From Longivirga aurantiaca (GTDB lineage: Bacteria; Actinomycetota; Actinomycetes; S36-B12; CAIYMF01), in the NCBI RefSeq assembly GCF_042660085.1, contig NZ_JBHSTI010000001.1, forward strand, positions 2,591-34,590: a stretch of DNA of 32,000 bases. Direction: 5' to 3'. The translations under genes were made by a program, and so were the position numbers. Under the pieces are notes generated by a model. That model did not search any database. It was given only the letters and a program-made list of their open reading frames with translations, and had not been told where the DNA came from. This document shows positions 1,028 through 29,072 of this stretch, piece after piece (position 1 is the stretch's first letter; the number at the start of each line of letters is the position of its first letter).

Positions 1028-1113
1028 GGCAAGCCTCACCTGATCGCCTGTGCTGCAACGGGAATCACGTGCCCGAATGCCCGATCGCGCAGCCGTGGAA
1101 GGCCAGCCGCACC

Positions 1114-1119: not shown

Positions 1120-1125
1120 GGACTC

Positions 1126-3379: not shown

Positions 3380-3387
3380 CGCGATTT

Positions 3388-3427
3388 GGTAGTGGTTTCT
3401 CGCAGCAGAGCGCGAGATTCCACTACC
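3388..3427. promoter_or_regulatory. 40-nt imperfect palindrome / hairpin between yjjW and the FAH-like gene
   Basis: The sequence is GGTAGTGG-TT-TCTCGC-(agcagagc)-GCGAGA-TT-CCACTACC. It has 8-bp and 6-bp arms with a symmetric T/T mismatch and is locally AT-richer than its surroundings. It lies 9 nt after the yjjW stop and 41 nt before ATG 3468, with no U-tract. It could be a terminator-like stem or an operator. Confidence 0.4.
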
Positions 3428-3467
3428 GAATCGGGCGTTGGTACGAGCGGCGATTACGCTCTCGACC

Positions 3468-7066: not shown

Positions 7067-7089
7067 GAAGGGGTTCCTTTACGCGGCCG

Positions 7090-7884: not shown

Positions 7885-8142
7885 GCGGCTCCCTGCCCGT
7901 TCTGCGTGAGTCGAGTTCGCGGGTCAATCCGTGGGCGAGTGTGCCAGGACCATGCCCCCCATGGGCCCCATACCCCGGCAAGCCGGAGGGGTCCGTGACA
8001 CACGCCACAAGGCTCCGCGGAGCGGCGCCTCGGACGAGGCGGCGGGGCGTGGAGCCGGCGACGGGTCGAGCGGGGCGGAGCAGGCCCCGAGAACCCGCCG
8101 GTCCGGGAGCACCCGGTCCACCGGGTCACAGGTTCCTCCTGG

Positions 8143-16554: not shown

Positions 16555-16557
16555 GGT

Positions 16558-16595
16558 GGTGCCTTCCGCTTCGGGTGCGGGCGCCGGGAGGCACC
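16558..16595 (-). promoter_or_regulatory. Hairpin in the MFS 5' leader that pairs the Shine-Dalgarno sequence with an upstream CCUCCC anti-SD
   Basis: The minus-strand RNA reads GGUGCCUCCC-(18 nt loop)-GGAAGGCACC-ACC-GUG. Nine of 10 positions pair, with one C/A mismatch. The 3' arm contains the SD, GGAAGG. Confidence 0.4.
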
Positions 16596-16780
16596 TGTTC
16601 GTGGTGGCACCCGGCTGGGTCGCAGGGGGTGCTCTCGGGCTGGTGTGCCGCGGTGGACCCGCGGCTCGAGGCGCAACCATCGCCGCCCCGGTGTTGTTCC
16701 CACTCTGCCTGAGCGGTCCGACACCGGCTTCTTCGTTTCTGCTGCGCTGGTTCGGGCTCAACCCGCAGCCAGCCGACGGC

Positions 16781-16786
16781 TACGGT
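16781..16786 (+). promoter_or_regulatory. -10-like hexamer TACGGT, 6 nt upstream of the HipA-like kinase ATG (putative leaderless promoter)
   Basis: A TANNNT hexamer ends at 16786, the ATG is at 16793, and there is no SD. Confidence 0.3.
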
Positions 16787-16792
16787 GACCGC

Positions 16793-17572
16793 ATGACCTC
16801 GGCGTTGCGTACCGTGCGCGCGACCCGCTACGTGCTCGCCCTGCGCGAGGGCGGCTCGTTGCCGGGCATCGTCGAGGCCGACGACCTGGGCACCTACGTG
16901 CTCAAGTTCCGCGGCGCGGGCCAGGGCCTGCTCGCCCTCGTGGCCGAGGTGGTGACGGGCGAGCTCGCCCGCCGCCTCGGCCTGCCGGTGCCCGAGCTGG
17001 TGCTGGCCGAGCTCGACGGCGGCCTCGCCAACGCCGAGCCCGACGAGGAGGTGCAGGACCTCCTGCGCGCGAGCCACGGCCTCAACCTCGGGATGGACTT
17101 CCTGCCCGGCGCCCTCGGCCTGGAGCGGCCCGACGGCGTCGACCCGCGCCTCGCAGCGCAGGTCGTCTGGTTCGACGCGCTCGTGCTCAACGTCGACCGC
17201 TCGTGGCGCAACCCCAACCTGCTGCGCTGGCACGGCGACCCGTACCTCATCGACCACGGCGCGGCCCTCTACTTCCACCACGACTGGTCGAGCGCGGCGA
17301 CCGTGCCGGGGCGGGCCTACCCCTCGCCGCGCGACCACGTGCTCATGCCCGTGGCCGGCCCCCTCGACGCCGCCCACGCCGCGCTCGCACCCCGCGTCAC
17401 CGCCGAGCTGCTCGACGAGGTGCTCGGGCTCGTGCCCGACCAGTGGCTGACCGCGGACGACGCTCACGCCGACGAGCGGCGTACGGCGTACCGCGACCTC
17501 CTGCTCGCCCGCGCGACGAACGCCGACGCGTGGCTCCCCGCCCTGGAGGTGGCCCGTGCCTCATACCTATGA
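16793..17572 (+). CDS. HipA-family (HipA-like C-terminal / PI3-4-kinase-like fold) kinase, function unknown
   Basis: A 259-aa protein starting MTSALRTVRATRYV. YVLKFRGAGQG is Gly-rich-loop-like and includes a Lys. NVDRSWRNPNLL is catalytic-loop-like (D-x-x-x-x-N), and LIDHG is DFG-like. From memory, this protein type is typically paired with DUF3037. The part of the track ORF upstream of 16793 is non-coding-like. Confidence 0.75.
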   Translation: MTSALRTVRATRYVLALREGGSLPGIVEADDLGTYVLKFRGAGQGLLALVAEVVTGELARRLGLPVPELVLAELDGGLANAEPDEEVQDLLRASHGLNLGMDFLPGALGLERPDGVDPRLAAQVVWFDALVLNVDRSWRNPNLLRWHGDPYLIDHGAALYFHHDWSSAATVPGRAYPSPRDHVLMPVAGPLDAAHAALAPRVTAELLDEVLGLVPDQWLTADDAHADERRTAYRDLLLARATNADAWLPALEVARASYL

Positions 17573-17942
17573 GTGGGCGGTGCTGCGGGTCGTCCCGCGC
17601 GTGGAGCGCTGCGAGTTCGTGAACGTCGGCGTGGTCGTCTACTGCCAGGCGCTCGACTACCTGGCCTGCTCCGTCGCCGACGACCTCGGCCGGGCCCTGT
17701 CTCTCGACCCGACGCTCGACGTCGAGGGCGTGCGCGCCCACCTCGACGCCGTCCGCGCGGTCTGCGAGGGATCGCCCGAGGCGGGCGCGAACGGTGCCCG
17801 CAAGCAGGGCGAGCGCTTCCGATGGCTCGTCGCCCCCCGCAGCACCGTGGTGCAGCCCTCCCCCGTGCACACGGGCATCACCGAGTCCCCGGAGGCCGAG
17901 CTGGCCGACCTTGCGGCGCGGATGGTCGCGCCGCCCTCGTAG
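17556..17942 (+). CDS. DUF3037 domain-containing protein
   Basis: A 128-aa protein with a GTG start that overlaps the kinase 3' end by 17 nt. The N-terminus YEWAVLRVVPRVERCEFVNVGVVVY is the characteristic DUF3037 signature. Confidence 0.8.
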   Translation: MPHTYEWAVLRVVPRVERCEFVNVGVVVYCQALDYLACSVADDLGRALSLDPTLDVEGVRAHLDAVRAVCEGSPEAGANGARKQGERFRWLVAPRSTVVQPSPVHTGITESPEAELADLAARMVAPPS

Positions 17943-18220: not shown

Positions 18221-20287
18221 TCAGTCCGACCCCTCGCCGCGACGCTTCTCGCTGTCGGCGAGCCGCGCGAGGTACGCGTTGTAGTCCGCGTGCACGTCGC
18301 GCCCCCTGCCCGTCGACGCCGCGCGCTCCTGGGCCCGGTCGCCGCGCCTCGCCTCGCGCTCGTCGCTCTTCACCCACTGCAGGAACAGCGCGATCATCAC
18401 GATCACGATGGGCACCTCGCCCAGCGCCCAGCCGATGCTCCCGCCGAGGTGCTGGTCGGCCAGCAGGTCGGTGAGGTACGGCCGCTCCAGCCCGCCGAAC
18501 CAGTCCTCGGCGAGGACCTGCGTGGTGGCCATGATCGCCAGCGAGAAGAACGAGTGCAGCGGTATCACGACCAGCAGGATGATGATGCGCACGAGGTACG
18601 GCGGACGCGTGGGCCCCGGGTCGACGCCGATGAGGCTCCAGAAGAAGAGCGAGCCGGCGAGCAGGAAGTGCACGCCCATGAAGATGTGGCCCCAGTGGCT
18701 CGTCATGAGCGTCGGGAACAGCGCCGTCAGGTAGAGGACGTAGAAGCTCGCCACGAAGATGACGGCCGCCACGATCGGGTTGGAGATCACCGTCACGTAC
18801 CGCGAGTGGATGACCATCGTGAGCCACTCGCGGGGGCCCACCTGGTCGCCACCCCGCGGGAGCGTGCGCAGCGCGAGGGTCACGGGCGCCCCGAGCACGA
18901 GGAAGATCGGCGCCACCATGCTCAGCACCATGTGCTGAACCATGTGCACGCTGAACAGCACCGACGCGTACGTCGCCAGCCCGGTGTTGGTCGCGACCAG
19001 GATCAGCGCGCAGCCGACGTACCAGAGCAGGCTGCGGCTGACCGGCCACCGGTCGCCCTCGCGCCGCAGGACGTGGGTGCCCGTCGCGTAGAGCGCGATC
19101 ATCAGGCAGCCGACCGCCAGCCAGAAGCCGTCGAGCCGCGCCTCGCCCCAGAGCAGCCCCGTGAGCGAGGGAACCGGCGGCAGGTCGAAGCCGAGCAGCA
19201 GCCTCGCCGGGCTGAGCGCGTCGACGGGCAGCTCGCCCGAGACGGGCGGCGGCGTGCGCGACAGCGCGACCGCGACACCGACGGTCGCTGCCATCACGAG
19301 CACCTCGACCGCCGCGATGCGCAGGAACCCGCGCCGCGCGGTGTCGCCCGAGAGCGCGGGCAGCACGTGCCGCCGGTGCCAGACGCCGAACCACGCGAGC
19401 GCGCCGATCAGCACCACCTTGAGCAGCACGAGCCGGCCGTACGACGTGCTCAGCAGATCCGACGGGGAGGCGAGCCGCACCGCGGCGCTCGCGACGCCCG
19501 ACAGGGCGAGGGCCACCGCGCACCACAGTGCGAGCCGGCTGAACCGCGGCACCGCCACCGGCAGCGGGCGCCGGTCGCTCGAGCCGAGGAGGACGAGCGC
19601 GACGAGCCCGCCGACCCACACCGAAGCGGCGAGCACGTGGAGCATGAGGCTCGAGACGGCGAGGGTGTGCTGGTCGGAGGTGCCCGCGTGCGACACGAGC
19701 GTGGTGGGCAGCGTCGCTCCGAGCGCGACCAGGCAGAGCAGGCCCGCACCGGTCGTGGTGCGGATCCACCGGGCGCACACCGCGACGCTCAGGGCGAGCA
19801 GCAGCTGCACGAGCAGGGCGCGTCCGAGCTCGACGTCGGAGACGAAGCTCCGGAGCAGGGTCGGGTCGAGCACCTCGCCGATCGGCAGCGCGATGATGTC
19901 CGACAGCGACGTCACCATCTGGCCCAGGACGATGGCGCACCAGACGAGCGCCGACCAACGCGCTGCCCGGGTCCAGGTGAGGCGTGCACCGCGCAGGAGC
20001 CCGTCGCGCGCAGGCACGAGCACCGCACCGAGCAGCAGCAGCCCTACCGTGAGCACCGCCGCCAGGTCGCCGAGCACCCGCAGCACCGGCACCGCCCACT
20101 GCGTGCCGAGGCCGGGGTCGGGCAGCCCGTCGGGGGCGGTGACCGGTCGACCGTCGCCGACCCAGAGCAGCAGGGCCATCACCGTCACGGCGACGACGAC
20201 GGCGGCGCCGAGCAGCACGGCGGGGCGCGGGGCGGCAGCGCCGTCCGCCTCCCGTCTCTGCGGCTGGGCCGCCGTCGTGGTGGTCAT
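18221..20287 (-). CDS. copD: Bifunctional copper resistance protein CopD / cytochrome c oxidase assembly (CtaG-like) membrane protein
   Basis: A ~688-aa protein with many TM helices. The N-terminal half is CopD-like and the C-terminal half is caa3 CtaG-like (HMVQHMVLSMVAP, HSFFSLAIM motifs). The ATG at 20287 overlaps the copC stop in an ATGA junction. Confidence 0.85.
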   Translation of the reverse strand: MTTTTAAQPQRREADGAAAPRPAVLLGAAVVVAVTVMALLLWVGDGRPVTAPDGLPDPGLGTQWAVPVLRVLGDLAAVLTVGLLLLGAVLVPARDGLLRGARLTWTRAARWSALVWCAIVLGQMVTSLSDIIALPIGEVLDPTLLRSFVSDVELGRALLVQLLLALSVAVCARWIRTTTGAGLLCLVALGATLPTTLVSHAGTSDQHTLAVSSLMLHVLAASVWVGGLVALVLLGSSDRRPLPVAVPRFSRLALWCAVALALSGVASAAVRLASPSDLLSTSYGRLVLLKVVLIGALAWFGVWHRRHVLPALSGDTARRGFLRIAAVEVLVMAATVGVAVALSRTPPPVSGELPVDALSPARLLLGFDLPPVPSLTGLLWGEARLDGFWLAVGCLMIALYATGTHVLRREGDRWPVSRSLLWYVGCALILVATNTGLATYASVLFSVHMVQHMVLSMVAPIFLVLGAPVTLALRTLPRGGDQVGPREWLTMVIHSRYVTVISNPIVAAVIFVASFYVLYLTALFPTLMTSHWGHIFMGVHFLLAGSLFFWSLIGVDPGPTRPPYLVRIIILLVVIPLHSFFSLAIMATTQVLAEDWFGGLERPYLTDLLADQHLGGSIGWALGEVPIVIVMIALFLQWVKSDEREARRGDRAQERAASTGRGRDVHADYNAYLARLADSEKRRGEGSD

Positions 20288-20952
20288 GACGAGGAGCCTG
20301 CCTTGCCACGGCGTGAGGCCGCCACCGCAGCGGTCGCCAGGACGAGCACGGCGAGGCCGCCGAGCACCCACGGCAGGGCCGATCCTCCGGTGGCCTCGGA
20401 CGAGACCGGCGACGTGCTGGGCTCGGGCTCGACCGATGCGCTGCCGGTCGGTGCTGCCGCCGACGACCCGGACGGCTCCGCGGTCCCGGGCTCCGAGGCC
20501 GACTCGCTCGGCTCGTCCGTGGCCGTCGGGCTCGGCGACGGCACCGAGGCGACGGTGAACATGAGGCTGCCGGTGACGGGATGCCCGTCCGAGGAGACGA
20601 CGCGGTACGACACCCGCACCTCGCCGGCGACGGTGGGCGGCGTGATGGCCCGGGTGATGACTGCGCCGTCGACGACGAGCGGGCCGTCGGCGAGCCGCAC
20701 GCCGGCGGAGTCGGTGACGACGACGGCCGTGCCGAGCTCCAGCACCTCCTCGCCGAAGGTGAGGGTGACGGCCGCGGGTGCCTCCTCGAGCGAGGCGCCG
20801 TCAGCCGGGTCGGTCGAGACGAGCTCGTCGTGCGCCGAGGCCGGGGACGCGAGCGCCACCGGGGCGAGGACCAGTGCGGCGGCCGCGACCGCGGCGCCGA
20901 CAAGCGATCGGATCCGGCGCCGCGAGGCGCGAGCAGGACGGGACGTGGACAT
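20284..20952 (-). CDS. copC: Copper resistance protein CopC (periplasmic copper chaperone, membrane-anchored)
   Basis: It has a signal peptide, then the mature N-terminus AHDELVSTDPADGASL, which is the CopC H-x...-D-P motif. Next come a CopC beta-sandwich-like region with VVSSDGHPVTG, a Ser/Pro/Thr/Glu linker and a C-terminal TM anchor. I chose the start at ATG 20952. Confidence 0.85.
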   Translation of the reverse strand: MSTSRPARASRRRIRSLVGAAVAAAALVLAPVALASPASAHDELVSTDPADGASLEEAPAAVTLTFGEEVLELGTAVVVTDSAGVRLADGPLVVDGAVITRAITPPTVAGEVRVSYRVVSSDGHPVTGSLMFTVASVPSPSPTATDEPSESASEPGTAEPSGSSAAAPTGSASVEPEPSTSPVSSEATGGSALPWVLGGLAVLVLATAAVAASRRGKAGSSS

Positions 20953-21006
20953 GCAGGACCTTCTGTCGGTGGTGGGGTGGCGGCAGCGCACGCCCCACCT
21001 TCCAGG

Positions 21007-21591
21007 TCAGCAGGGCGCGAGGAGCCTCGGCGGCCCGCGCCGCGGGCGTCGGCCGACCACGACCAGGCCGGTGCCGGACACAGCCGCCGAGCAGCCCGTG
21101 ACCGCGAGCGTCACCATCGCCGGGACGGTGGCGCGCGCGGTGACCAGCCGGACAGCGTGCACCAGCGACCAGAGCGAGAGGGCGCACGCCTCGAGTGCCG
21201 CGAGGAGGAGGGCCGCGACCACCACGGCCGCCGCGTGCGCGAGCAGCATCCGGCCGTCGGGCCCGACGTGCGCGTGGGCCGGGTGCGACGCCGGGCCCAC
21301 CGCGGACAGGCGCGGGTCGACGGCACCCGTCGGCGACGTGAGCCACAGGACGCCGTGCACCGCGGGCTGCGCGGCGACGAGGGCCACCAGCAGGCGCGGC
21401 GCCGTCCACCGCTGCGCCGAGGCGACGACGGTGCCGGCCACGACCAGGGCCAGCGCCGCGACGACCGCCGGCGTGACGGCGTCGCCGCCGCCGAGCACGT
21501 GGCCGCCGACGGCGACGAGCGCCCCGACCAGCCCCACCACGAGGCCGCGGACGCGCCGCAGCGGCGTCACAGGTCGTCGGCTGCCGGTCAC
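21007..21591 (-). CDS. Hypothetical integral membrane protein (about 4 TM) leading the copC-copD operon
   Basis: A 194-aa Ala/Val/Leu-rich hydrophobic protein with a His-rich loop (ASHPAHAHVGPDG). GC3 is high. It has a GTG start at 21591. No family was recognised. Confidence 0.6.
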   Translation of the reverse strand: MTGSRRPVTPLRRVRGLVVGLVGALVAVGGHVLGGGDAVTPAVVAALALVVAGTVVASAQRWTAPRLLVALVAAQPAVHGVLWLTSPTGAVDPRLSAVGPASHPAHAHVGPDGRMLLAHAAAVVVAALLLAALEACALSLWSLVHAVRLVTARATVPAMVTLAVTGCSAAVSGTGLVVVGRRPRRGPPRLLAPC

Positions 21592-21597
21592 CCGGCC

Positions 21598-21603
21598 ATC
21601 GTA
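21598..21603 (-). promoter_or_regulatory. -10-like hexamer TACGAT (minus strand), 6 nt upstream of GTG 21591 (putative leaderless promoter of the copper operon)
   Basis: The minus strand reads ctcaccTACGATggccggGTG. Confidence 0.3.
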
Positions 21604-21815
21604 GGTGAGGGCCGGGGGCCCGCCCGCTGGGGCTGCGGTGAACGGCGGGAGAGCGAGCCGGGGCTTCGTCCGTCCCCGAGCCTCGCCCGCGCGTGCGGGG
21701 AACCTCTCAGTTGCCTCTCCCCGGTGGGATCGGAGCCCTCACCGCGCCAGAATGCACGTGCGCGCGCCGTGAGCGAGCACGCCATCCGGCGCCAGGCACC
21801 GACGGAGAGAGAGTC

Positions 21816-22187
21816 ATGAGCGACATCACCGCGGAGACCGTGAACCGCGCTCGCCTCGACTCCCTCGTCGACGAGATCGGCGACCAGGACATCGTCCGCC
21901 AGGCCGTGCAGAGCTTCCTCGACGAGCTGGTCGAGCGCCTCCAGGCGATCCGGACCACGATCTCGGGCGGCGACGCCGCGGAGATCAAGAAGGCCGCGCA
22001 CGCCCTCGGCTCGCCGGCGGCCATGCTCGGCGCGATCGAGGTCAACCGCATCTGCCGCGCCATGCAGGACCAGTGCGACGCCGGCGGGGACGTGCTCGCG
22101 CCTGTGATGGCCGACCTCGACGCCAGCTCCGCGCGCACAGTGTCCGGGCTGCGGGCGTACCTCGCCGAGTCGGCGGCCACCGCCTGA
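21816..22187 (+). CDS. Hpt (histidine phosphotransfer) domain-containing protein
   Basis: A 123-aa protein. A GGAGAGAGAG SD precedes the ATG at 21816. The motif AAHALGSPAAMLGA matches the Hpt phospho-His motif (H-x-L-[KG]-[GS]-S/P-x-x-x-x-G-A). The composition predicts an all-helical protein. Confidence 0.8.
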   Translation: MSDITAETVNRARLDSLVDEIGDQDIVRQAVQSFLDELVERLQAIRTTISGGDAAEIKKAAHALGSPAAMLGAIEVNRICRAMQDQCDAGGDVLAPVMADLDASSARTVSGLRAYLAESAATA

Positions 22188-22221
22188 GCCGTGCGCCCCG
22201 CGCGCGGTCTGCGTCGGCGGC

Positions 22222-23955
22222 CTACGTGCTGCTCGCGCCGTCCAGCCAGCGCTGCACCATGCCGGAGAGCGCGTCGATGCCGAACGGCTTGCTGAGGTAG
22301 TCGACCATCCCTGCGTCGCGGCACAGGTCGCGCTCGGTCTGCCCGACGTGCGCCGTGAGCGCGACGATCGGCACGTCGGCGGGGGTCGCACCGCCACCGT
22401 GGATGCGCCACCAGCGCGTCGCCTCGCGCCCGTCCATGCCGGGCATCTGCACGTCCATGAGGACGAGCCCGTACGCCGTGACCCGCAGCGCCTCGATCGC
22501 GGCCTCGCCGCTCTCGACCACGTCGGTGGTGACGCCGAGCTTCCCCAGCATCGCGGCGGCGAGCCTGCGGTTGACGTCGTTGTCGTCGACCAGGAGCACC
22601 CGCGTGCTGTGGTCGGACCGGACCGTGGGCACGTGCACCGGTGCGTGCACGCGCAGCCGGGCCGCCGTACCGCCCTCGGCGCGGCGCCTGACCTCGACCG
22701 TCCCCCCGAGGGCCGCAGCGAGGCGTGCGGTCTGGGCCAGTCCGGAGCCTCCGGTGGGCCGGCTCGGCGTCTCCCAGGAGCAGCCGATGCCGTCGTCGAC
22801 GACGTCGAAGACCACGGCGTCGTCCTCGAGCGAGACGCTCAGCTGCACGGCCTCGGCGTGTGCGTGACGCACGGCGTTGTCGACGAGCTCGTCGAGGACC
22901 TGGGTGACGAGGGGCAGGGCGAGCTCGACCGGGTGGTCGCCCGGAGGGACCGACGCGACGGTCACCGGCACCGCGGTGCTCGAGTGGCGCTCGGCGACCT
23001 CGGTCACCAGGTCGCGCAGCACCGTCGGGGTACGCGGCCCGGCGACGCGACGCTCGGTGCCGTCGGCGATGGCGACGAGGGCGTCGGCCAGGCGGTCCAG
23101 CCGGTCGAGGTCGGCCGTGCCCTGCGAGTCCTCGGCGTCCACGCGGCCGCGCAGGTCGACCGAGACGTCGTGCAGCTCGTGCACGACCCACGCCGCGTAC
23201 GCCGTGCGCGCGTCGTCGGTGCTCCTGCCGTGCCGGGTGAGCGCGGCCACGTCCTGGGTGCGCTGCGCCAGCAGCTCCTCGAGCCGGCGGCGGTCGTCGG
23301 CCTGGCGCTGCTGGGCCCGCTCCCACTCGACCGCGCGCCCCAGCTGGGCGGCGAGGGACGGTGCCAGCTGCAGCAGCCGCTCGTCGGCCGGCATCGGCTC
23401 GGGGTGCAGGAACTCCACGACTGCGACGACCTCGATGCCGGTGATGATCGGGAACGCCCAGGTGGATCCGGCCGCCTCGCCCTCGCGCCCGCGCCCCGGC
23501 GCCACCGACGTGTCGGGCACCCACGCCGCGAGGTGCGAGGCACCCACCTCGCCCGGGAGCCCCACCGCCGGGGTGAAGCGCCGGTCGACGGTCGCACCCA
23601 TCACCGCATCGAGGAAGTCGAGCTCGACGGGGTCGGCGTCCCAGATGTCGGAGGTGACGAACGCGCCGTCGGGCTCGCGCAGCAGCACGTGCGAGACCGC
23701 GAACCTGCAGTGCCGGCGTACGACCTTCGCCGCTGCGCTCATCGCGGACAGGGCGTCGTCGGTCTCGTTGACGATGACCGCGATGGAGGCCAGCAGCTCC
23801 ACCTCGCGGGCGCGCTCGAAGGCCCGCCTCAGCTGCATCTCGGCCGTGCGCTCGGCCTCGAGACGCGCGGCCCGCTCCTGCGCGGCGCGGTGCTCGAGGC
23901 GTGCGATCCCGTCCGGACCGACGTCGTCCGGGACCGAGCGCGGGTCGATGCTCAC
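22222..23955 (-). CDS. Hybrid sensor histidine kinase: coiled coil - GAF - DHp - HATPase_c - receiver
   Basis: A 577-aa protein. Its GTG at 23955 overlaps the upstream kinase stop in a GTGA junction. The rest of the 1170-aa track ORF runs out of frame through the upstream kinase. It has a GAF-like N-terminal region and an atypical H-box, WVVHELHD. The kinase boxes are N box LVDNAVRHA, G1 DDGIG and G2 GGSGLA. The receiver is canonical (LLVDDND, LVLMDVQMPGMDG, ALTAH, SKPF). Confidence 0.85.
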   Translation of the reverse strand: MSIDPRSVPDDVGPDGIARLEHRAAQERAARLEAERTAEMQLRRAFERAREVELLASIAVIVNETDDALSAMSAAAKVVRRHCRFAVSHVLLREPDGAFVTSDIWDADPVELDFLDAVMGATVDRRFTPAVGLPGEVGASHLAAWVPDTSVAPGRGREGEAAGSTWAFPIITGIEVVAVVEFLHPEPMPADERLLQLAPSLAAQLGRAVEWERAQQRQADDRRRLEELLAQRTQDVAALTRHGRSTDDARTAYAAWVVHELHDVSVDLRGRVDAEDSQGTADLDRLDRLADALVAIADGTERRVAGPRTPTVLRDLVTEVAERHSSTAVPVTVASVPPGDHPVELALPLVTQVLDELVDNAVRHAHAEAVQLSVSLEDDAVVFDVVDDGIGCSWETPSRPTGGSGLAQTARLAAALGGTVEVRRRAEGGTAARLRVHAPVHVPTVRSDHSTRVLLVDDNDVNRRLAAAMLGKLGVTTDVVESGEAAIEALRVTAYGLVLMDVQMPGMDGREATRWWRIHGGGATPADVPIVALTAHVGQTERDLCRDAGMVDYLSKPFGIDALSGMVQRWLDGASST

Positions 23956-26360
23956 TGGGCCTGCCCGAGCACGACGTCGAGCAGCCGACGGAGCTCGCCG
24001 ATGTCGACCGGCTTGCCGATGTGGCCGTCCATGCCGCTGGTGCGGCACCGGTCGAGCACGGCGTCGTCCGAGCCGCCGAACATCGCGTACACCGGCACCT
24101 TGGCCACGGCTGGGTTGCGCGACCTGCGGATGCGCTCGGTCATGTCCGGACCGTCCAGTCCCGTCATGCGTGCAGACACGAGGACGAGCCTCGTGCCCGG
24201 GGCGGACTCGAGGAGCTCGAGAGCCTCCTCGCACGAGGCGACGGCGACGCCCGAGGTGCCCAGGCGCTGCAGCAGGCGCATGACGTGGCCGCGGCGCGGC
24301 TCGCTCGACTCGACGACGAGCACCGAGGGGGCGACCCGCACCGGGGTCTCGCGCACGTCCTCGTCCGAGGTGTCGGCGGCGACCTCCTCGAGGCGCAGGA
24401 CGAAGCGGAACGCCGATCCCACGCCGACGGCGGAGTCGACCACGATCTGCCCACCCATGAGCCCGACGAGCCGGTCGGCGATCGCGAGCCCCAGCCCGGT
24501 GCCCTCCTGGCTGCTGCGGGCCTGGACGAAGGGGTCGAAGATCGACGCGGCCTGCTCGGGCACGATGCCGGGGCCGGTGTCGCGCACCTCGACCTCGACG
24601 ACGGACTCCGGGCCGCGCTGGGACACCAGGCGCAGCGCGAGCGAGACCGAGCCGGACTCGGTGAACTTCACCGCGTTGCCGACGAGGTTGACGAGCACCT
24701 GCCGGAACCGCACCGGGTCGCCGAGCACGCGCGACGGCGTCCCGGGGTCGATCGACAGCGCCAGCTCGATTCCCTTCGCCCGCGCCTGCGGCCCGAGGAG
24801 GTCGACGACGGCCTTCGCGCTGTCGGCGACCGAGAAGGGCTCGGTCACGAGGTCGATGCGGCCGGCCTCGACCTTCTGCAGGTCGAGGATGTCGTTGATG
24901 ATCGACACGAGGTTGGTGGCCGACATGTCGATGACGCCGACGAGCTCGCGCTGCTCGCCGTCGAGGTCGGTCGTGCGCAGCAGGTCGACGGTGGCGAGCA
25001 CGCCGTGCATCGGCGTGCGGATCTCGTGGCTCATCGAGGCGAGGAACTGCGACTTCGCGTCCGAGGCTGCGATCGCCTCGTCGCGGGCGCGGGCGAGCGC
25101 CCCCTGGTAGAGCACGCGGTCGGTCGCGTCCCGGAACATCCAGAGCGCCCCGAGGTCCTGCCCCTCGGACACGATGGGCTGGAAGTCGAACTCGAGCACG
25201 CGCGATCCCGAAAGGGTCAGCGACTGGTTGGATGTGGGCCACCGACGCGCGGTGAGGGTCTCGGTACGCCGCAGGAACGCTGCCGGGTCGTCCTCGGGGC
25301 GCACGACCTGCGCGATGGCCGCGCTGATCGGAAGCCCGGTGAGCTCGTCGGGGTCGGCCTCGGAGCGGAACATCTGGCAGAGCATGGCGTTGGCCATCAC
25401 GATGCGTCGCTGCCGGTCCTCGACGAGCACGCCCGACTGCATGTGGTCGAGGAGCGTGGTGAGGCGCGACATCGTGTCGTGCAGCTCGATCTCCGCGGTC
25501 TTGGTCTTGGTGATGTCGAGCATGAAGCCGAAGCGGCGTCGTCGCCCGTCCTCGTCCTCGACGACGGTGTCGACCGCCCGGGTCCAGACAACCTGACCGT
25601 CGGCGCACAGCAGCCGAACCTCCTCGTCGTACGGGCTGTCGTCCGCCTCGGCGGCGCGGTTGGCCGCCCAGGCCCGCTCGCGGTCCTCGGGGTGCACGAC
25701 CACCCGGAAGAAGAAGGCCTGCTCGGTGAGCCACCGGCGTACGGGGTAGCCCAGCCAGTCGACCACCTGGGGGCTGATGAACTCGGCCACCGACTCGTCG
25801 CCGAGGGTGTCGATGTACATCACGAGCGGCTGCAGCTCGACGATGCGGCGGTACTGCGCCTCGGCCCGGGTGAGCATCCGGTTGGCATCACGGAGCTCGG
25901 TGGCCGACCGCTGCAGCTCGGCGTTCAGCGTGCGCAGGTCGTCGAGGCTGCGCTCCTGGCCGCGGCGCAGGAACAGCAGGTCGGGGGTCTGGTCGACCGG
26001 GGAGAAGTCCGCCGCGGACAGCCCGAGACGATCGAGCTCCTGGGACGAGGAGACGATCGGGTTGCCGATGAGCAGGACTCCGGGCGGGTCCGAGACGTCG
26101 ACCGCCTGGAAGCGCAGCCGGGGACCCTCGGGCAGCAACCGCATGAGCAGCATGGAGTCGCGGTGGTCGCGGATCTGCTCGATCGTGGACACGCCGAGGG
26201 GGCGGACCACCTCGAGCACCTCGAGGAGCGGGCGACCGACCAGGTCGACCCCGAGGCGCGCCCACGACGGGCCCTGCCGGACGACGACGAGGTCCTCGTC
26301 GCACAGCACCCCGAACGGTGCCGCGCGGTCGAGGTCGTCGTCGCGGAGCTGGATGCTCAC
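23952..26360 (-). CDS. Sensor histidine kinase: HNOBA - coiled coil - PAS - PAS - HisKA - HATPase_c - degenerate receiver
   Basis: An 802-aa protein. Its GTG at 26360 overlaps the H-NOX stop in a GTGA junction. The N-terminus, APFGVLCDEDLVVVRQGPSWARL...LLEVLEVVRP, closely resembles the sGC HNOBA domain (FPFH.IFDRDL.V.Q.G..L.R....F.LVRP). The kinase core is canonical: H-box SHEIRTPMHG, N box LVGNAVKFT, G1 DTGPGI, F box FDPF and G2 GTGLGLAI. The C-terminal receiver-like domain has Ser in place of the phospho-accepting Asp (LVLVSARMTGLDG). Confidence 0.9.
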   Translation of the reverse strand: MSIQLRDDDLDRAAPFGVLCDEDLVVVRQGPSWARLGVDLVGRPLLEVLEVVRPLGVSTIEQIRDHRDSMLLMRLLPEGPRLRFQAVDVSDPPGVLLIGNPIVSSSQELDRLGLSAADFSPVDQTPDLLFLRRGQERSLDDLRTLNAELQRSATELRDANRMLTRAEAQYRRIVELQPLVMYIDTLGDESVAEFISPQVVDWLGYPVRRWLTEQAFFFRVVVHPEDRERAWAANRAAEADDSPYDEEVRLLCADGQVVWTRAVDTVVEDEDGRRRRFGFMLDITKTKTAEIELHDTMSRLTTLLDHMQSGVLVEDRQRRIVMANAMLCQMFRSEADPDELTGLPISAAIAQVVRPEDDPAAFLRRTETLTARRWPTSNQSLTLSGSRVLEFDFQPIVSEGQDLGALWMFRDATDRVLYQGALARARDEAIAASDAKSQFLASMSHEIRTPMHGVLATVDLLRTTDLDGEQRELVGVIDMSATNLVSIINDILDLQKVEAGRIDLVTEPFSVADSAKAVVDLLGPQARAKGIELALSIDPGTPSRVLGDPVRFRQVLVNLVGNAVKFTESGSVSLALRLVSQRGPESVVEVEVRDTGPGIVPEQAASIFDPFVQARSSQEGTGLGLAIADRLVGLMGGQIVVDSAVGVGSAFRFVLRLEEVAADTSDEDVRETPVRVAPSVLVVESSEPRRGHVMRLLQRLGTSGVAVASCEEALELLESAPGTRLVLVSARMTGLDGPDMTERIRRSRNPAVAKVPVYAMFGGSDDAVLDRCRTSGMDGHIGKPVDIGELRRLLDVVLGQAQ

Positions 26361-26914
26361 GGTGCCCCGGACGCCGTCAGCCGTACGTGGAAGACCTCGT
26401 GGTCGGTGCCGTCGGACGCGACGGCGTCGTGGGTGACCGCTGCGGGCGTGCCGTAGAGGTCGCCGAGCCCTTCGAGCAGGCCCACGACGAACGGCACGAG
26501 CCCGGCCCGCTCGGACCGGTAGTGGACGTCGAGGCCGTCCTCACCCGTCTCGACGACGTCGAACGACGGCGGTCGCAGCTCCGGGTAGAGCGACTGCAGC
26601 CGCGCGTGCATCTCGTCGAGGTTGCGCAGCACGGACGCCACGTCGGTGCCCGTCGCGCCCAGGATGTCGCCGTAGCTCTCGGGCCCGACGCGGGTGGACC
26701 AGTAGTGGCCGAACCCGCGCAGCAGGTCCTCGGCCGGTGCGTCGAGCACCTCGCTCGCGGCCCCGACGAGGGCGTAGGTCACCGAGTCGTCGTAGTAGTG
26801 CAGGGCGGCGAACGTCTGGCTGGTCTCGGCCCGGAGGGCGATGCTGCTCCAGGCGGCGGGGCCGGCGTTCTCCACGACGTGGCGGCGCATCGCCTCGTTG
26901 ATGAGCCCGTACAT
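26357..26914 (-). CDS. hnoX: H-NOX (heme nitric oxide/oxygen binding, HNOB) domain protein
   Basis: A 185-aa protein starting MYGLINEAM. The proximal-His motif is RNLDEMHARL. It has PPSF and the heme-propionate motif Y-x-S-x-R (HYRSER) followed by GL..FVVGLLEG. A GGAGAGGG SD lies 9 nt upstream of the ATG at 26914. The track start at GTG 26923 has no spacing to the SD. Confidence 0.9.
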   Translation of the reverse strand: MYGLINEAMRRHVVENAGPAAWSSIALRAETSQTFAALHYYDDSVTYALVGAASEVLDAPAEDLLRGFGHYWSTRVGPESYGDILGATGTDVASVLRNLDEMHARLQSLYPELRPPSFDVVETGEDGLDVHYRSERAGLVPFVVGLLEGLGDLYGTPAAVTHDAVASDGTDHEVFHVRLTASGAP

Positions 26915-26980
26915 CGACGGCACCCCTCTCCGACTCGACGGCGTGGCCGTGCGCCCGCGGCGGGCGGGCGGACGGTCGGA

Positions 26981-27667
26981 TCAGACCGGCTCGAACCGGT
27001 ACCCGACCCCACGCAGCGTACGGATGTGCCGCGGCGATGCGGCGGACTCGCCGAGCTTCTTGCGCAGCTTGCCGACGTGGACCTCGATGACGTGGTCGTC
27101 GCCGAACCACTCGCCCCAGATCTGCTCGAGCAGCTGCTCGCGGGTGAAGATGCGGCGCGGGTTGCCCGAGAGCAGGTCCAGGATGTCGAACTCGATCTTG
27201 GTGAGCTCGACCTCCTCGCCGTCGACCTTCACCTCGCGGGCCAGCGGATCGACGATCAGGTGGCCGAAGTCGCGGACCTCCTGCTGCGCGCGCTGACGGG
27301 GGCGGCGGCGCATCGCGCGGATGCGGGCGGCGAGCTCGCGCGGGGAGAAGGGCTTCGTGACGTAGTCGTCGGCGCCGACCGTGAGGCCCACGATCTTGTC
27401 GACCTCGTCGTCGCGCGAGGTGACCATCACGACGTACGCGTCGCTGAAGACGCGGAGCTGGCGGCACACCTCGACGCCGTCGCAGTCCGGGAGCGAGAGG
27501 TCGAGGATGACGAGCTCGGGCTTGCCGGCCCGGGCGAACTCCAGCCCCTTCTTCCCGAGCGGGGTCGCGACGACGTCGTACCCCTCCTTCTCGAGGAGAC
27601 CGCGAACGAGCAGGGTGATCTCTGGCGAGTCCTCGATGATGAGGGCTTGACCTCGCTGGGTGGCCAC
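26981..27667 (-). CDS. OmpR/PhoB-family response regulator (receiver + winged-helix DNA-binding domain)
   Basis: The receiver has ALIIEDS, LVILDLSLPDCDG, MVTSRD and YVTKPF. The C-terminal trans_reg_C region has LTKIEFDILDLL, REQLLEQIWG and IRTLRGVGYRF. I prefer the GTG at 27667 because a GAAAGGA SD lies 8 nt upstream. An alternative ATG is at 27718. Confidence 0.92.
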   Translation of the reverse strand: MATQRGQALIIEDSPEITLLVRGLLEKEGYDVVATPLGKKGLEFARAGKPELVILDLSLPDCDGVEVCRQLRVFSDAYVVMVTSRDDEVDKIVGLTVGADDYVTKPFSPRELAARIRAMRRRPRQRAQQEVRDFGHLIVDPLAREVKVDGEEVELTKIEFDILDLLSGNPRRIFTREQLLEQIWGEWFGDDHVIEVHVGKLRKKLGESAASPRHIRTLRGVGYRFEPV

Positions 27668-27864
27668 GATGCCTGTCCTTTCGCCTTGTCCGGTGACGGG
27701 GCGGACTGACTGAGACATCGGCGCGGATTGCGCGCGTCCTGAGTTACTCCGTCCGTGTTCCACCGGAAGTACCTCTCCGGTCAACTCCGTCGCTCACTTC
27801 ATCACATCCGCCTCTCGGGATGCTCAACGAGCGATCAGCGGACGAGAGCGATCGGAGAGGAACC

Positions 27865-27895
27865 GGTGACCGCGGCGTACGCCGACCCGGTCACC
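27865..27895 (-). terminator. Stem-loop overlapping the AI-2E transporter stop codon (possible terminator insulating the downstream RR operon)
   Basis: The 8-bp stem is GGTGACCG...CGGTCACC. It encloses the 10-bp palindrome GGCGTACGCC. There is no U-tract. Confidence 0.25.
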
Positions 27896-29072
27896 CCGAG
27901 GACGCGGGGTCCTCGACGACGTCGTACGTCGGCGCGTAGGTCTCGAGGAACGACATCACGATCGCGGCGACGGGAACGGCGAGGAGGGCACCCGCAGCGC
28001 CGAACAGCGAGGCACCGAACATGACCGCCCCGAACGACACCGCTGGATGCAGGTCGACCGCCTTGGCGCTGATCCTGGGCTCGATGGTGAGGTTCTCGAC
28101 CTGCTGGTAGAGCAGCGCCCACACCAGTGCGATGAGGCCGTCCTTCGGGTCGTCGGACAGCACGCCGATGAGCACCGGCAGCGCGATCGCGATGTAGGTA
28201 CCGATGGTGGGCACGAACTGCGCCACGATGCCGGTCCAGATGCCGAGCGGCAGCCAGTAGGGCATCCCGATGAGGTACAGCACCAGGGCCGTCGTGCTGC
28301 CGTTGATGAAGGCGAGCACGAGGCGCGCCGCGACGTAGCCGCCGGCCTTCTGGATCGCGGTGTCCCAGAGCTCGCTGTTGACCTTCTGCGCGCTGCGCGG
28401 CAGGAACTTCGCGATCCACCGGCGCAGGCGTGGGGCGTCGGCCGACAGGTAGAACGTGAACAGCAGCAGCGTGAACACGTTGAAGACCGAGCCGAGGAAC
28501 GTGAAGATCGCCCCGAAGATGCCGCCTGCCGCCCCGGCCGCCCACGACGCGATGGCGCCCGGGGTCAGCCCGATGCTGTCGAGGATCTTCTCCACGCTGA
28601 GGTCCGTCGAGAACTGCCTGTTGATCCAGTCGATGACGTTCGTGACGACGTCCGGCAGCGAGGTGATGAGCTGCAGCAGCTGCTCGACCAGCAGGTTCCC
28701 GAAGATCAGGAAGAAGACCACGGTGCCCAGGAGCGCGAGGATCATGATCAGGCCGGTCGCGAGGCCGCGCCTCATGCCCCGGCGCGCGAAGAAGCCGACC
28801 GCCGGCTCCATGGCCACCGACAGGGCGAACGCCATGATGATCGTGAAGAGCACGCCGCCGGCATCCTCGAGCACGAACATGAAGAACCAGACCACGGCTG
28901 CGATGACGAGCACCATCGCCGCCACGCGACGCAGGTTGCCCAGGTCGAAGACGACCGTGGCCTCGCGCTCGGGCGCCTTCACGCGGTCGGCAGCGCGCAC
29001 CCCGGGCGCCGTGCCGGGCGTGGTCTCCGCAGCAGCGATCTGATCGCCTGCAGTCTCGTCGTCGTTCGCCAT
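27891..29072 (-). CDS. AI-2E family transporter (PerM/YhhT, UPF0118)
   Basis: A 393-aa protein with about 8 TM helices. The charged N-terminal tail, and the FVPTIG and LLYQQVENLTIEPRI segments, are typical of AI-2E/UPF0118 proteins. A GGGAGGGG SD lies 6 nt before the ATG at 29072. Confidence 0.9.
   Translation of the reverse strand: MANDDETAGDQIAAAETTPGTAPGVRAADRVKAPEREATVVFDLGNLRRVAAMVLVIAAVVWFFMFVLEDAGGVLFTIIMAFALSVAMEPAVGFFARRGMRRGLATGLIMILALLGTVVFFLIFGNLLVEQLLQLITSLPDVVTNVIDWINRQFSTDLSVEKILDSIGLTPGAIASWAAGAAGGIFGAIFTFLGSVFNVFTLLLFTFYLSADAPRLRRWIAKFLPRSAQKVNSELWDTAIQKAGGYVAARLVLAFINGSTTALVLYLIGMPYWLPLGIWTGIVAQFVPTIGTYIAIALPVLIGVLSDDPKDGLIALVWALLYQQVENLTIEPRISAKAVDLHPAVSFGAVMFGASLFGAAGALLAVPVAAIVMSFLETYAPTYDVVEDPASSG

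Follow-up and report, generated by a model that had tools for sequence, protein, structure and literature searches.

A conserved H-NOX, HNOBA kinase and Hpt gene cluster in Longivirga aurantiaca, a candidate variant of bacterial nitric oxide signalling

Relays that run from an H-NOX protein through a hybrid kinase and an Hpt protein to a response regulator (RR) have been characterised in Vibrio and Silicibacter, where the hybrid kinase, whose signal runs through Hpt, is inhibited by NO-bound H-NOX (PMC6759604; PMC4436077). In Nostoc, the H-NOX protein derives from 'a histidine kinase operon', and a crystallised H-NOXA domain is carried by a kinase of Nostoc punctiforme (PMC2576301). Actinobacterial H-NOX systems were described as not characterised in a 2022 review (PMC8738867).

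The DNA analysed here, referred to below as the window, is a 32,000-nucleotide stretch of the Longivirga aurantiaca genome with 72% G+C across its whole length, which together with the labels of the closest loci (given below) supports an actinobacterial origin. The split H-NOX and HNOBA-kinase to which a preliminary description of it drew attention is not a new arrangement, since the same pair as the window H-NOX and kinase 1 occurs in Nostoc (PMC2576301). Proteins with an N-terminal HNOBA domain form approximately 946 clusters when grouped at 50% identity; among 72 of these clusters that were sampled, a histidine kinase was found in 60, a receiver in 34 and an Hpt domain in 12. The novelty suggested for the relay was also overstated, given the Vibrio and Silicibacter systems, in which H-NOX already acts through a hybrid kinase and Hpt. 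For actinobacteria the view taken there does stand: that their H-NOX systems are still uncharacterised is said explicitly in the 2022 review (PMC8738867).

Five adjoining genes at 21816-27667 make up the cluster. Those for the RR, H-NOX, kinase 1 and kinase 2 are all on the minus strand, the RR gene standing immediately upstream of the other two, H-NOX and kinase 1, within a single co-directional block, and the Hpt gene is on the plus strand. The features are as follows:

26981..27667, minus: OmpR/PhoB-family RR, 228 aa, receiver and winged-helix DNA-binding domain (Pfam Response_reg 93 bits, Trans_reg_C 94 bits)
26357..26914, minus: stand-alone H-NOX, predicted haem sensor of the sGC/Nostoc type, 185 aa (Pfam HNOB, PDB matches, alignment)
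23952..26360, minus: kinase 1, 802 aa, with HNOBA, signalling helix, PAS, PAS, HisKA (His445), HATPase_c and pseudo-receiver (Pfam, alignment)
26007..26360, minus: HNOBA/H-NOXA (PAS-like) domain, kinase 1 aa 1-118 (Pfam HNOBA 41.6 bits, cut-off 23.4)
25821..26006, minus: signalling helix/coiled coil, kinase 1 aa 119-180 (corresponds in alignment to the first part of the sGC coiled coil)
25113..25781, minus: two PAS domains, kinase 1 aa 194-277 and 300-416 (Pfam PAS_3 54 bits, at aa 194-277; PAS_9, PAS_4 and PAS 27-37 bits)
24387..25058, minus: kinase 1 core, HisKA aa 435-500 (His445) and HATPase_c aa 547-658 (Pfam 68 and 92 bits)
23982..24323, minus: pseudo-receiver, kinase 1 aa 680-793 (Pfam Response_reg 41 bits)
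22222..23955, minus: kinase 2, 577 aa, with N-terminal helix, GAF, divergent DHp (His259), HATPase_c and canonical receiver (Pfam, alignments, AF2 model)
23386..23757, minus: GAF domain, kinase 2 aa 67-190 (orthologue GAF_2 matches and AF2 fold)
23056..23238, minus: divergent DHp-like helical hairpin, kinase 2 about aa 240-300, conserved His259 (motif and predicted helices)
22645..22908, minus: HATPase_c, kinase 2 aa 350-437 (Pfam HATPase_c 47 bits, above cut-off)
22255..22599, minus: canonical receiver, kinase 2 aa 453-567 (Pfam Response_reg 81 bits)
21816..22187, plus: single-domain Hpt, 123 aa, His62, convergent with the operon (Pfam Hpt 46 bits)

All five genes were found where the preliminary description had placed them, and nearly all of its domain assignments were borne out by Pfam HMMs, PDB profile matches and predicted structure; these include the OmpR-type RR and the single-domain Hpt converging on the operon end. 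The Pfam search that it had proposed gave scores above cut-off everywhere except in kinase 2, in which GAF fell below cut-off and HisKA had no match. The two GTGA start/stop overlaps that it had reported were both read directly in the sequence, one between the H-NOX stop and the GTG start of kinase 1 and the other between the kinase 1 stop and the GTG start of kinase 2, and such 4-base overlaps are also present in two loci, L001 and L007. The sequence GGAGAGGGG comes before the H-NOX start codon, the ATG at 26914. The cluster is kept in at least 13 loci, all of them in metagenome-assembled genomes of uncultured organisms (Ca. Nanopelagicales, Actinomycetes or Solirubrobacteraceae), and the nearest are in those labelled Ca. 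Nanopelagicales, Actinomycetes or Actinomycetota.

The H-NOX protein matched Pfam HNOB with 136 bits (cut-off 25.5). Its PDB matches were Nostoc Alr2278 (1e-45), sGC beta1 (1e-27) and, at only 3e-7, Shewanella H-NOX, which supports its predicted assignment to the sGC/Nostoc type. The proximal histidine in NLDEMH (His103) and the YxSxR motif (Y132, S134 and R136), both noted in the preliminary description, are invariant in the alignment, as is Pro116. Phe142 aligns with Nostoc Met144, at the position of the distal-pocket tyrosine in O2-binding H-NOX proteins, which we take to be that of sGC Ile145 and Thermoanaerobacter Tyr140. With phenylalanine at this position, the distal pocket should lack a hydrogen-bond donor for O2. 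We infer that the protein binds haem and that NO is most likely its gas.

Kinase 1 does begin with a genuine HNOBA/H-NOXA domain, as had been claimed. In addition to the Pfam match, its family profile retrieved from the PDB only sGC beta1 (3e-14), sGC alpha1 (2e-9) and the H-NOXA domain of the N. punctiforme STHK, 2p04 (4.5e-12), and the match of this region to sGC beta1 extends to residue 378-388. All 62 residues of the signalling helix are identical in five of five close orthologues, although dS is 0.36-0.67. The two PAS domains and the canonical HisKA/HATPase core were also borne out; the core has kept its N (N562), G1 (D594), F and G2 (G620) boxes intact and is constrained (DHp dN/dS 0.07-0.26; dN/dS figures throughout are rough, as a GC3 above 90% compresses dS). 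The receiver does lack its phospho-Asp. Ser729 occupies that position, E684/S685 form the acidic pair and Phe761 replaces the conserved threonine, while Lys783 is retained. In an alignment of 18 loci, aspartate was present at the Ser729 position in all 12 loci of the two other architectures described below (types A and B), and serine or alanine in all six loci of the window type (type C).

The receiver of kinase 2 is the only intact one among the two kinases and is fully canonical (D457, D501, T534 and K556), in agreement with the preliminary description. It is also the best-conserved kinase domain (82-92% identity in close loci, dN/dS 0.11-0.31). The proposed GAF domain was weak from the window sequence alone (GAF_2 19.5 bits), and is upheld as a prediction by GAF_2 matches in each of the 11 orthologues (E-values down to 1e-7) and by the AF2 model (pLDDT 86). 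Target-normalised TM-scores of this model against solved GAF domains were about 0.73-0.82, with 0.73-0.79 for 1f5m, 3ci6 and 3mmh. Pfam HisKA gave no match on kinase 2. A motif [FY]-x-A-x-x-x-H-[DE] containing His259 is kept in all orthologues whose sequence covers the site, and helices are predicted at aa 192-271 and 277-297 in the AF2 model.

The related loci form an evolutionary series. In type A loci, the deepest relatives of the window cluster, H-NOX is accompanied by one HNOBA-PAS-PAS-HisKA-HATPase-REC(Asp)-Hpt polypeptide and by an orthologous OmpR regulator, which adjoins the H-NOX/kinase pair and is 49-53% identical to that of the window. Type B loci have Hpt as a separate gene and gain two others, one for a second H-NOX, of the Shewanella type, and one for the GAF kinase. 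In type C, to which the window belongs, this added H-NOX has been lost and the kinase 1 receiver is dead. Sequence alignment pairs the window Hpt with the kinase-fused Hpt domain of type A. The histidine of the window protein is conserved, and every type B and C locus has the gene at this same place, converging on the operon. Since type A carries kinase, REC and Hpt in a single polypeptide beside the OmpR regulator, the route from kinase to REC, Hpt and RR is ancestral. Kinase 2 was ancestrally preceded, immediately upstream, by a Shewanella-type H-NOX gene of its own, which the window lineage has lost. This history differs from the picture in the preliminary description, where an AND gate and the sensing of a GAF ligand by kinase 2 were suggested. 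The RR itself has D13, D56, T83 and K105 in its receiver, shares 96-99% identity with its counterparts in the closest loci (dN/dS 0.01-0.09) and is presumed to be the final output.

The reading preferred here, to which a probability of roughly 55% is given, is that the genes encode a cytoplasmic phosphorelay that senses a gas, most likely nitric oxide, through haem and has transcription as its output. Gas would be bound by the stand-alone H-NOX at ferrous haem. H-NOX would dock on the HNOBA domain and the invariant signalling helix of kinase 1, as within sGC, and thereby alter autophosphorylation at His445. NO-bound H-NOX inhibits the kinase in characterised bacterial systems, whereas the sign of regulation here, like every phosphotransfer step, is one that we infer. 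Because of Ser729, the receiver of kinase 1 cannot itself take the phosphate, and transfer in trans from His445 to Asp501 of the kinase 2 receiver is proposed by elimination. From Asp501 the phosphoryl group would pass to His62 of the separate Hpt and then to Asp56 of the OmpR-type regulator, changing transcription of target genes. Kinase 2, with its GAF domain, divergent DHp and ATP-binding domain, could feed or drain the same receiver and so provide a second input.

Whether kinase 2 is still a kinase bears on that second input. Nowhere in the cluster is evolution faster than in the DHp and CA domains of this protein (dN/dS up to 0.68; HATPase_c up to 0.66, with 56-81% identity among close loci). 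For several of the more distant orthologues no HATPase_c match is on record, and one orthologue bears the NCBI name 'response regulator', so the activity of kinase 2 may be weak or lost. Together with the missing HisKA match, this favours a GAF-regulated relay protein carrying Asp501, possibly under phosphatase control, in a cluster with a single kinase input. Such a protein seems somewhat unlikely, as His259 and the N (N360), G1 (D388) and G2 (G403) boxes are kept in the window and its near relatives, HATPase_c scores above cut-off and dN/dS is below 1. Two separate branches have also been considered, in which kinase 1 phosphorylates the adjacent OmpR regulator directly, its pseudo-receiver serves docking or autoinhibition, and kinase 2, its receiver and Hpt act as a second input or a phosphate sink on the same regulator. 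Loss of the receiver in hybrid kinases can mean reversion to one-step signalling; here the aspartate that would force an intramolecular relay is gone and the RR gene adjoins H-NOX and kinase 1. The pseudo-receiver remains under purifying selection (dN/dS 0.25-0.54), which points to some function beyond what the proposed relay explains. However, the ancestral architecture runs kinase 1 via REC and Hpt to the same regulator family, the DHp would have to switch specificity from an intramolecular receiver to that of OmpR, and none of the six loci without the kinase 1 aspartate has lost Hpt or the kinase 2 receiver, both of which are conserved there. The branched scheme is considered unlikely.

That H-NOX senses CO, O2 or the redox state of its haem or cysteines, with the cluster reporting hypoxia or redox stress, is improbable, though CO has some likelihood as the ligand. 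Its nearest structural relative, Nostoc H-NOX, was crystallised with NO and CO (PMC2576301), haem-free thiol-based signalling is described for Vibrio cholerae H-NOX (PMC8738867), and no NO-producing or NO-detoxifying genes were found within the window. Yet Phe142 argues against stable O2 binding, and all characterised kinase-paired stand-alone H-NOX proteins of facultative aerobes respond to NO (PMC4436077; PMC6759604). Decay of the cluster, with the dead receiver and lost second H-NOX of the window clade as steps to loss of function, would accord with relaxed constraint on the kinase 2 DHp and CA domains, but it is very improbable given five intact ORFs in six independent genomes of this clade, dN/dS below 1 in every domain, the regulator above all, and preserved start/stop overlaps.

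The domains, key residues and conservation support the earlier proposal that the components needed for a multistep phosphorelay under H-NOX control, ending in transcription, are all present in the window, and these components are conserved. Judged from its sequence, the cluster is a real and conserved variant of a bacterial nitric oxide signalling circuit already known in outline.

Five adjacent genes of the window encode what, from their sequences, are all four modules of a multistep His-Asp-His-Asp phosphorelay, in which the order of transfer is putative. Lists of open reading frames made mechanically are crowded here because the G+C content of the window is 67-77%. The five frames that the preliminary description had placed in this region nevertheless translate cleanly, and Pfam matches support each of them:

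26981-27667, minus strand: OmpR-type response regulator (RR); Response_reg 93 bits, Trans_reg_C 94 bits
26357-26914, minus strand: H-NOX; HNOB (PF07700) 136.3 bits against a cut-off of 25.5, matched over the full length (1-163 of 163)
23952-26360, minus strand: kinase 1, 802 aa; HNOBA, PAS_3, a second PAS, HisKA, HATPase_c and receiver
22222-23955, minus strand: kinase 2, 577 aa; HATPase_c and a strong receiver
21816-22187, plus strand: Hpt, 123 aa; Hpt (PF01627) 46.2 bits against a cut-off of 24.6

Searches with the Pfam models named in that description placed HNOB, HNOBA, HisKA and HATPase_c (kinase 1), Response_reg, Hpt and Trans_reg_C above their cut-offs, and no NCBIfam equivalog was reached by any of the five proteins. 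The start/stop overlaps claimed to join the H-NOX, kinase 1 and kinase 2 genes were read directly: a GTG start overlaps a TGA stop (...GTGA...) at both the H-NOX/kinase 1 and the kinase 1/kinase 2 junctions. A Shine-Dalgarno-like GGAGAGGGG lies upstream of the H-NOX ATG at 26914. Gene adjacency, the 4-base overlaps and conservation in at least 13 loci support a predicted partnership of H-NOX with kinase 1. The residues of a phosphorelay are all intact, namely His445 (kinase 1) or His259 (kinase 2), Asp501 (kinase-2 receiver), His62 (Hpt) and Asp56 (RR).

The sensor half resembles soluble guanylate cyclase (sGC). His103 (in NLDEMH), Tyr132-x-Ser134-x-Arg136 and Pro116 of the H-NOX protein do not vary among 16 aligned sequences, one of them the crystallised Nostoc protein, in agreement with the proximal His and YxSxR propionate motif reported before. 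Against the PDB, the protein matched Nostoc Alr2278 at E 1e-45 (42% identity in the alignment), sGC beta1 at about 1e-27 to 1e-26 and Shewanella H-NOX only at 3e-7; Thermoanaerobacter H-NOX gave no match at E<=0.01. On these comparisons it is assigned to the sGC/Nostoc-type subgroup, and not to the Shewanella/Vibrio or Thermoanaerobacter types. We infer both haem binding and the ligand. Phe142 is aligned with Nostoc Met144, at what we take to be the position of sGC beta1 Ile145 and of the O2-stabilising Tyr140 of Thermoanaerobacter H-NOX. Because this residue is non-polar, the protein is predicted to bind NO and CO without stable binding of O2.

The HNOBA (H-NOXA) domain claimed for the N-terminus of kinase 1 is likewise present (PF07701, 41.6 bits against a cut-off of 23.4). 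When a profile of 14 kinase-1 N-termini was compared with the whole PDB, the only matches at E<1e-5 were sGC beta1/alpha1 and the H-NOXA domain of the Nostoc punctiforme STHK kinase (2p04/2p08). The match to sGC beta1 (E 3e-14) covers residues 211-388, which are the H-NOXA domain and the start of the coiled coil; that to 2p04 had an E-value of 4.5e-12. The 62 residues that follow HNOBA (aa 119-180; window 25821-26006) are identical in five of five close orthologues (dN = 0), at a synonymous divergence of 0.36-0.67. By analogy with the sGC coiled coil, such constraint is the signature expected of a conformation-transmitting signalling helix. No other segment of the two kinases comes near it in constraint.

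The splitting of an sGC-like sensor between two genes is not new, because a Nostoc H-NOX 'from a histidine kinase operon' and a Nostoc punctiforme kinase H-NOXA domain are already known as textbook structural models for sGC (PMC2576301). The Nostoc system (Alr2278, PDB 2o09; H-NOXA 2p04/2p08) shares with the window a stand-alone sGC-type H-NOX in a histidine-kinase operon, that is, a 'split sGC sensor half' (PMC2576301). It differs in its host, which is cyanobacterial, whereas that of the window belongs to the Actinomycetota. Further elements of the window are a pseudo-receiver, a second kinase with a GAF domain, an Hpt encoded on its own and, beside these genes, an OmpR regulator; the comparison with Nostoc covers the H-NOX and H-NOXA domains only. 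We know of no characterisation of signalling by the Nostoc H-NOX/H-NOXA-kinase pair. With sGC beta1 (H-NOX, H-NOXA/PAS, coiled coil, cyclase) the window shares homologous H-NOX, HNOBA and the start of the coiled coil, as well as the constrained helix after HNOBA. The system of the window differs from sGC in that its sensor is encoded as a polypeptide of its own, its output comes from a histidine kinase and not from a nucleotide cyclase, and no alpha/beta heterodimer is involved.

Beyond HNOBA, kinase 1 carries the two PAS domains (PAS_3 and a second PAS) and the canonical kinase core that had been described. HisKA scored 68 bits and HATPase_c 92 bits; the H-box His445 is canonical, and the N (N562), G1 (D594), F and G2 (G620) boxes are intact. 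The nearest NCBIfam models to this core are TorS (E 7e-93) and BarA (E 1e-77), both far below their equivalog cut-offs. The receiver fold is present (Response_reg, 41 bits), and the phospho-Asp is missing as originally noticed: Ser729 stands in its place, Glu684-Ser685 in that of the acidic pair and Phe761 in that of the Thr, with Lys783 retained. A hybrid kinase has a receiver with a phospho-accepting Asp. Kinase 1 has none, and is therefore a kinase with a pseudo-receiver rather than a functional hybrid kinase.

Kinase 2 has the intact receiver expected of it, with a fully canonical set of residues (D457, D501, T534 and K556; Response_reg, 81 bits). Its HATPase_c domain scored 47 bits, with N360, D388 and G403 of the ATP-binding boxes present. 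HisKA-family models of Pfam gave no match. His259 lies within a conserved [FY]-x-A-x-x-x-H-[DE] motif, in a helical hairpin (aa 192-297) predicted by AF2, and this hairpin is predicted to be a divergent DHp that the HisKA model misses. The GAF domain claimed for this kinase holds up, although GAF_2 scored only 19.5-21.9 bits in the window protein, below the cut-off. All 11 orthologous N-termini matched GAF_2 (best E-value 1e-7). The AF2 model (27 homologues, pLDDT 86) has a long N-terminal helix, an alpha/beta domain (aa 68-184) and the hairpin, and Foldseek matched the alpha/beta domain to solved GAF domains such as 1f5m, 3ci6 and 3mmh (target-normalised TM-scores about 0.73-0.82). A haem-binding GAF like that of DosS/DosT was considered and rejected, the fold search having returned generic GAF domains, none of them DosS-specific. 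Within the GAF (23386-23757), His82-Cys83, His89 and His141 are invariant in 11 orthologues, and in the wider alignment of 27 sequences His89 shows hardly any variation; a metal, haem or redox site could be built from these residues.

The single-domain Hpt that converges on the operon, as previously noted, conserves His62, which aligns with the Hpt His fused to the kinases of certain relatives (type A, below), and the free protein aligns with that fused domain along its length. The OmpR-type assignment of the regulator holds, with both HMMs above 90 bits and D13, D56, T83 and K105 present. The nearest NCBIfam models to the regulator are MtrA, CreB and PhoB, but the scores fall far short of the cut-offs (best MtrA, 210 against 300), so the protein is not assigned to any named orthologue group. 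The non-coding region upstream of its gene has conserved blocks in type B and C relatives. One of them, TGTCACAGTGAGTGA, is nearly palindromic and lies some 40-55 nt ahead of the start codon (seen in loci L008, L009, L012, L011 and L020). The window counterpart (27703-27717, minus strand) is degenerate: TGTCTCAGTCAGTCC. The near-palindrome could be an operator or a 5'-UTR element; Rfam gave no match for the conserved blocks. Scans of 21500-28100 for sigma-70 promoters and intrinsic terminators found none, as expected at 72% G+C, and short repeats in the intergenic regions look like chance.

Homologues of the H-NOX protein are metagenomic, and the named ones come from Ca. Nanopelagicales or Actinomycetes MAGs. 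The survey of their taxonomy and gene neighbourhood that had been suggested was carried out on one genome per GTDB species, with an alignment of actinobacterial H-NOX sequences only as query. It found 19 loci, all in MAGs, the best match being 93% identical. Their labels are Ca. Nanopelagicales, Actinomycetes, Actinomycetota and Solirubrobacteraceae, with one Planctomycetota and one 'Akkermansia'. Gene calls, a tblastn survey and the receiver alignment sorted the loci into three architectures.

Architectures of the cluster (L numbers are handles for related genomic loci)
Type A (L005/L023, L006/L022, L021, L026): H-NOX; one 941-950-aa kinase, HNOBA-PAS-PAS-HisKA-HATPase-REC (Asp intact)-Hpt; OmpR regulator within a few kb
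Type B (L003/L016, L011, L013, L014, L018, L019, L020): RR, H-NOX1, kinase 1 (Asp intact), H-NOX2, kinase 2, convergent Hpt
Type C (window, L001/L002, L007/L012, L008, L009, L010): layout of type B without H-NOX2; kinase-1 Asp replaced by Ser or Ala

The type A kinase (L005:10549-13401, L006:10548-13373) adjoins H-NOX in distant actinobacterial relatives, MAGs of Solirubrobacteraceae and Actinomycetes, and looks like the ancestral fused form of the split relay in the window. Its full HK-REC-Hpt layout is that of the unorthodox tripartite kinases TorS, ArcB and BarA; in the window, by contrast, the three modules are spread over three genes and the receiver of the first kinase is dead. Type B loci of Ca. 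Nanopelagicales MAGs (e.g. GCA_046330715.1, L003/L016) agree with the window in gene order, flanks and the five proteins (46-85% identity). They differ in keeping the kinase-1 phospho-Asp and in having an extra H-NOX gene between kinase 1 and kinase 2 (L003:12959-13495; also L011, L013, L014, L016, L018, L019 and L020). This H-NOX2 is of the Shewanella type (PDB 2kii and 4u99 at 1e-22, Nostoc only at 4e-7). The loci that bear it thus combine two H-NOX lineages in one operon. A further type B locus, L017, ends after kinase 1. In L011 (MAG CAWGZO010000001.1), the kinase-1 gene lies in two tblastn frames that meet at 10256-10257, which indicates a frameshift from assembly error or a pseudogene.

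In a neighbour-joining tree of kinase 1, type C forms one clade within a paraphyletic type B, and type A lies outside; the window architecture is therefore derived. No remnant of H-NOX2 was found in the window by tblastn, and the window clade has lost this gene. Absence of H-NOX2 coincides with absence of the kinase-1 Asp in six of six type C loci, which probably reflects a single ancestor and not six independent events. The flanks are syntenic in types B and C, with an acetyl-CoA hydrolase-like gene and an ABM gene on one side and a membrane protein, CopC, CopD/CtaG, DUF3037 and HipA_2 on the other. On the former side, type C loci also have an AI-2E family transporter gene (window 27891-29072). 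Like the RR gene it is on the minus strand, and it is the next gene upstream of it, at a gap of about 220 bp; in the type B locus L003 it is absent at that position.

Selection was estimated by the Nei-Gojobori method between the window and five type C orthologues. Absolute dN/dS is unreliable at GC3 >90% and the ranking is informative: regulator 0.01-0.09, kinase-1 DHp 0.07-0.26, kinase-2 receiver 0.11-0.31, H-NOX 0.13-0.39, kinase-1 pseudo-receiver 0.25-0.54 and kinase-2 DHp/CA 0.11-0.68. The pseudo-receiver is relaxed, yet not free of constraint, and the kinase-2 receiver is the best-kept kinase-borne module. A decaying cluster is ruled out by dN/dS <1 in every domain and by the integrity of the reading frames.

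In type A, phosphate would pass from the kinase His to the Asp of its own receiver, then to the His of its own Hpt and on to the Asp of the OmpR regulator. In the window, the catalytic core of kinase 1 is intact and constrained despite a receiver that cannot be phosphorylated. The simplest continuation of the ancestral route is one in trans. If H-NOX behaves as it does in sGC and in the kinase pairs characterised so far, it would modulate kinase 1 after docking on HNOBA and the helix. Phosphate from kinase 1 would then pass to Asp501 of kinase 2, the only live kinase-borne receiver, and from there to Hpt His62 and regulator Asp56. The sign of regulation and every phosphotransfer step are inferred in this scheme.

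The main rival is that kinase 1 phosphorylates the regulator directly; kinase 2 and Hpt would then make up a second branch or serve as a sink. Kinase 2, through its GAF domain, His259 and ATP-binding boxes, could also load or unload the receiver used by the trans route. In a sub-variant, kinase 2 is now only the carrier of that receiver. Its family is tiny, with 36 proteins found among 5.8 billion clusters; for several of these no HATPase_c match is on record, and NCBI calls one a 'response regulator'. Returning to the trans route, we regard as tentative, at a probability of about 0.3, the idea that two H-NOX/kinase channels once ran in parallel and were forced into series when kinase 1 lost its Asp. 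Kinase 1, under NO control, would then signal only via the receiver of the other kinase, and the GAF-controlled kinase/phosphatase balance of kinase 2 would decide how much flows on to Hpt and the regulator. Such a hand-off from the His of one kinase to the Asp of another would be a natural coincidence gate, built by domain inactivation. If so, types A and B are surviving intermediates of its evolution, and Gram-positive phyla would have in it their first gas-sensing H-NOX pathway.

To our knowledge, H-NOX signalling has been worked out almost solely in Proteobacteria. In Vibrio and Silicibacter, NO-bound H-NOX inhibits autophosphorylation and the signal passes via Hpt (PMC6759604, PMC4436077). 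Vibrio H-NOX/HqsK/LuxU/LuxO and Silicibacter H-NOX/HK/Hpt/DGC resemble the window in having a stand-alone H-NOX beside a hybrid kinase, a separate Hpt and a response regulator. The proteobacterial stand-alone H-NOX type is distant from the window protein, judged by solved Shewanella representatives (E about 3e-7). Both systems also have one kinase with a live receiver, and their outputs are LuxO or a diguanylate cyclase, not an OmpR-type regulator. No HNOBA domain is known to us in the Vibrio and Silicibacter kinases. HNOBA itself is widespread. A word-indexed homologue search with the domain returned 4 fragments only, while an exhaustive HMMER search (E<=0.001, cluster representatives at 50% identity) found an N-terminal HNOBA-type domain in 946 representatives. 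Among 72 of these that were sampled, HNOBA was present in 72, HATPase_c in 60, HisKA in 59, a receiver in 34, Hpt in 12, GAF in 13 and GGDEF in 5. HNOBA kinases, including hybrid and Hpt-bearing ones, are therefore a common, though unstudied, prokaryotic architecture.

In a network grown from Vibrio H-NOX, a 2022 review noted H-NOX sequences of actinobacteria; it stated that no NO-sensing H-NOX had been reported from any Gram-positive organism (PMC8738867). Full-text literature searches for H-NOX with Actinobacteria or Actinomycetota found nothing further of relevance; together with the review (PMC8738867), they bear out the earlier statement that no such actinobacterial system has been characterised. 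The general circuit type is already known, and HNOBA kinases are common in metagenomes. New features are an sGC-type H-NOX/HNOBA system in actinobacteria, the OmpR-type output of this system, an arrangement of two kinases in which a pseudo-receiver is conserved, and the series from type A through B to C. The preliminary description was correct in what it observed and is supported in part in its interpretation. The circuit is not categorically new.

The window is otherwise ordinary chromosome (DUF2804, radical SAM, DUF5718, SdhA/B-like, M20 peptidase, DUF1015, YhhN, DUF2252, ROK, 2OG oxygenase, MFS, HipA_2/DUF3037 and CopC/CopD). No NO-metabolism genes were found in it, and Rfam and tRNA scans of it were empty. 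Four of its regions are described here:

2-4328: successive genes for DUF2804, a small radical-SAM protein and DUF5718
4389-7078: succinate dehydrogenase/fumarate reductase-like flavoprotein and iron-sulfur subunit, then an unassigned 277-aa ORF (7090-7923)
16493-17942, plus strand: HipA_2-like kinase gene overlapping a DUF3037 gene
18221-21591, minus strand: genes for a multi-pass membrane protein rich in His (no Pfam match), for CopC and for a fused CopD/Caa3_CtaG, arranged like an operon directly after the convergent Hpt

The HipA_2/DUF3037 pair, kept beside the cluster in L001, L003 and L007, may be a toxin-antitoxin-like module. Synteny between the copper set and the relay holds in every type B and C locus examined. 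The 194-aa protein at 21007-21591 was considered as a sixth relay component and rejected, being the His-rich membrane protein sited with CopC and CopD/CtaG; it is probably part of the copper operon.

The cluster is a concrete, complete and conserved H-NOX candidate in the Actinomycetota, with a predicted transcriptional output and hosts that are uncultured. Among bacterial systems, its sensor half comes closest to the animal NO receptor. H-NOX on the one hand and HNOBA with its helix on the other are separate polypeptides, and the pair is therefore a tractable model of how H-NOX talks to an H-NOXA/coiled-coil module. The three living architectures, fused, duplicated and degenerate, amount to a natural experiment on the rewiring of phosphorelays through pseudo-receivers.
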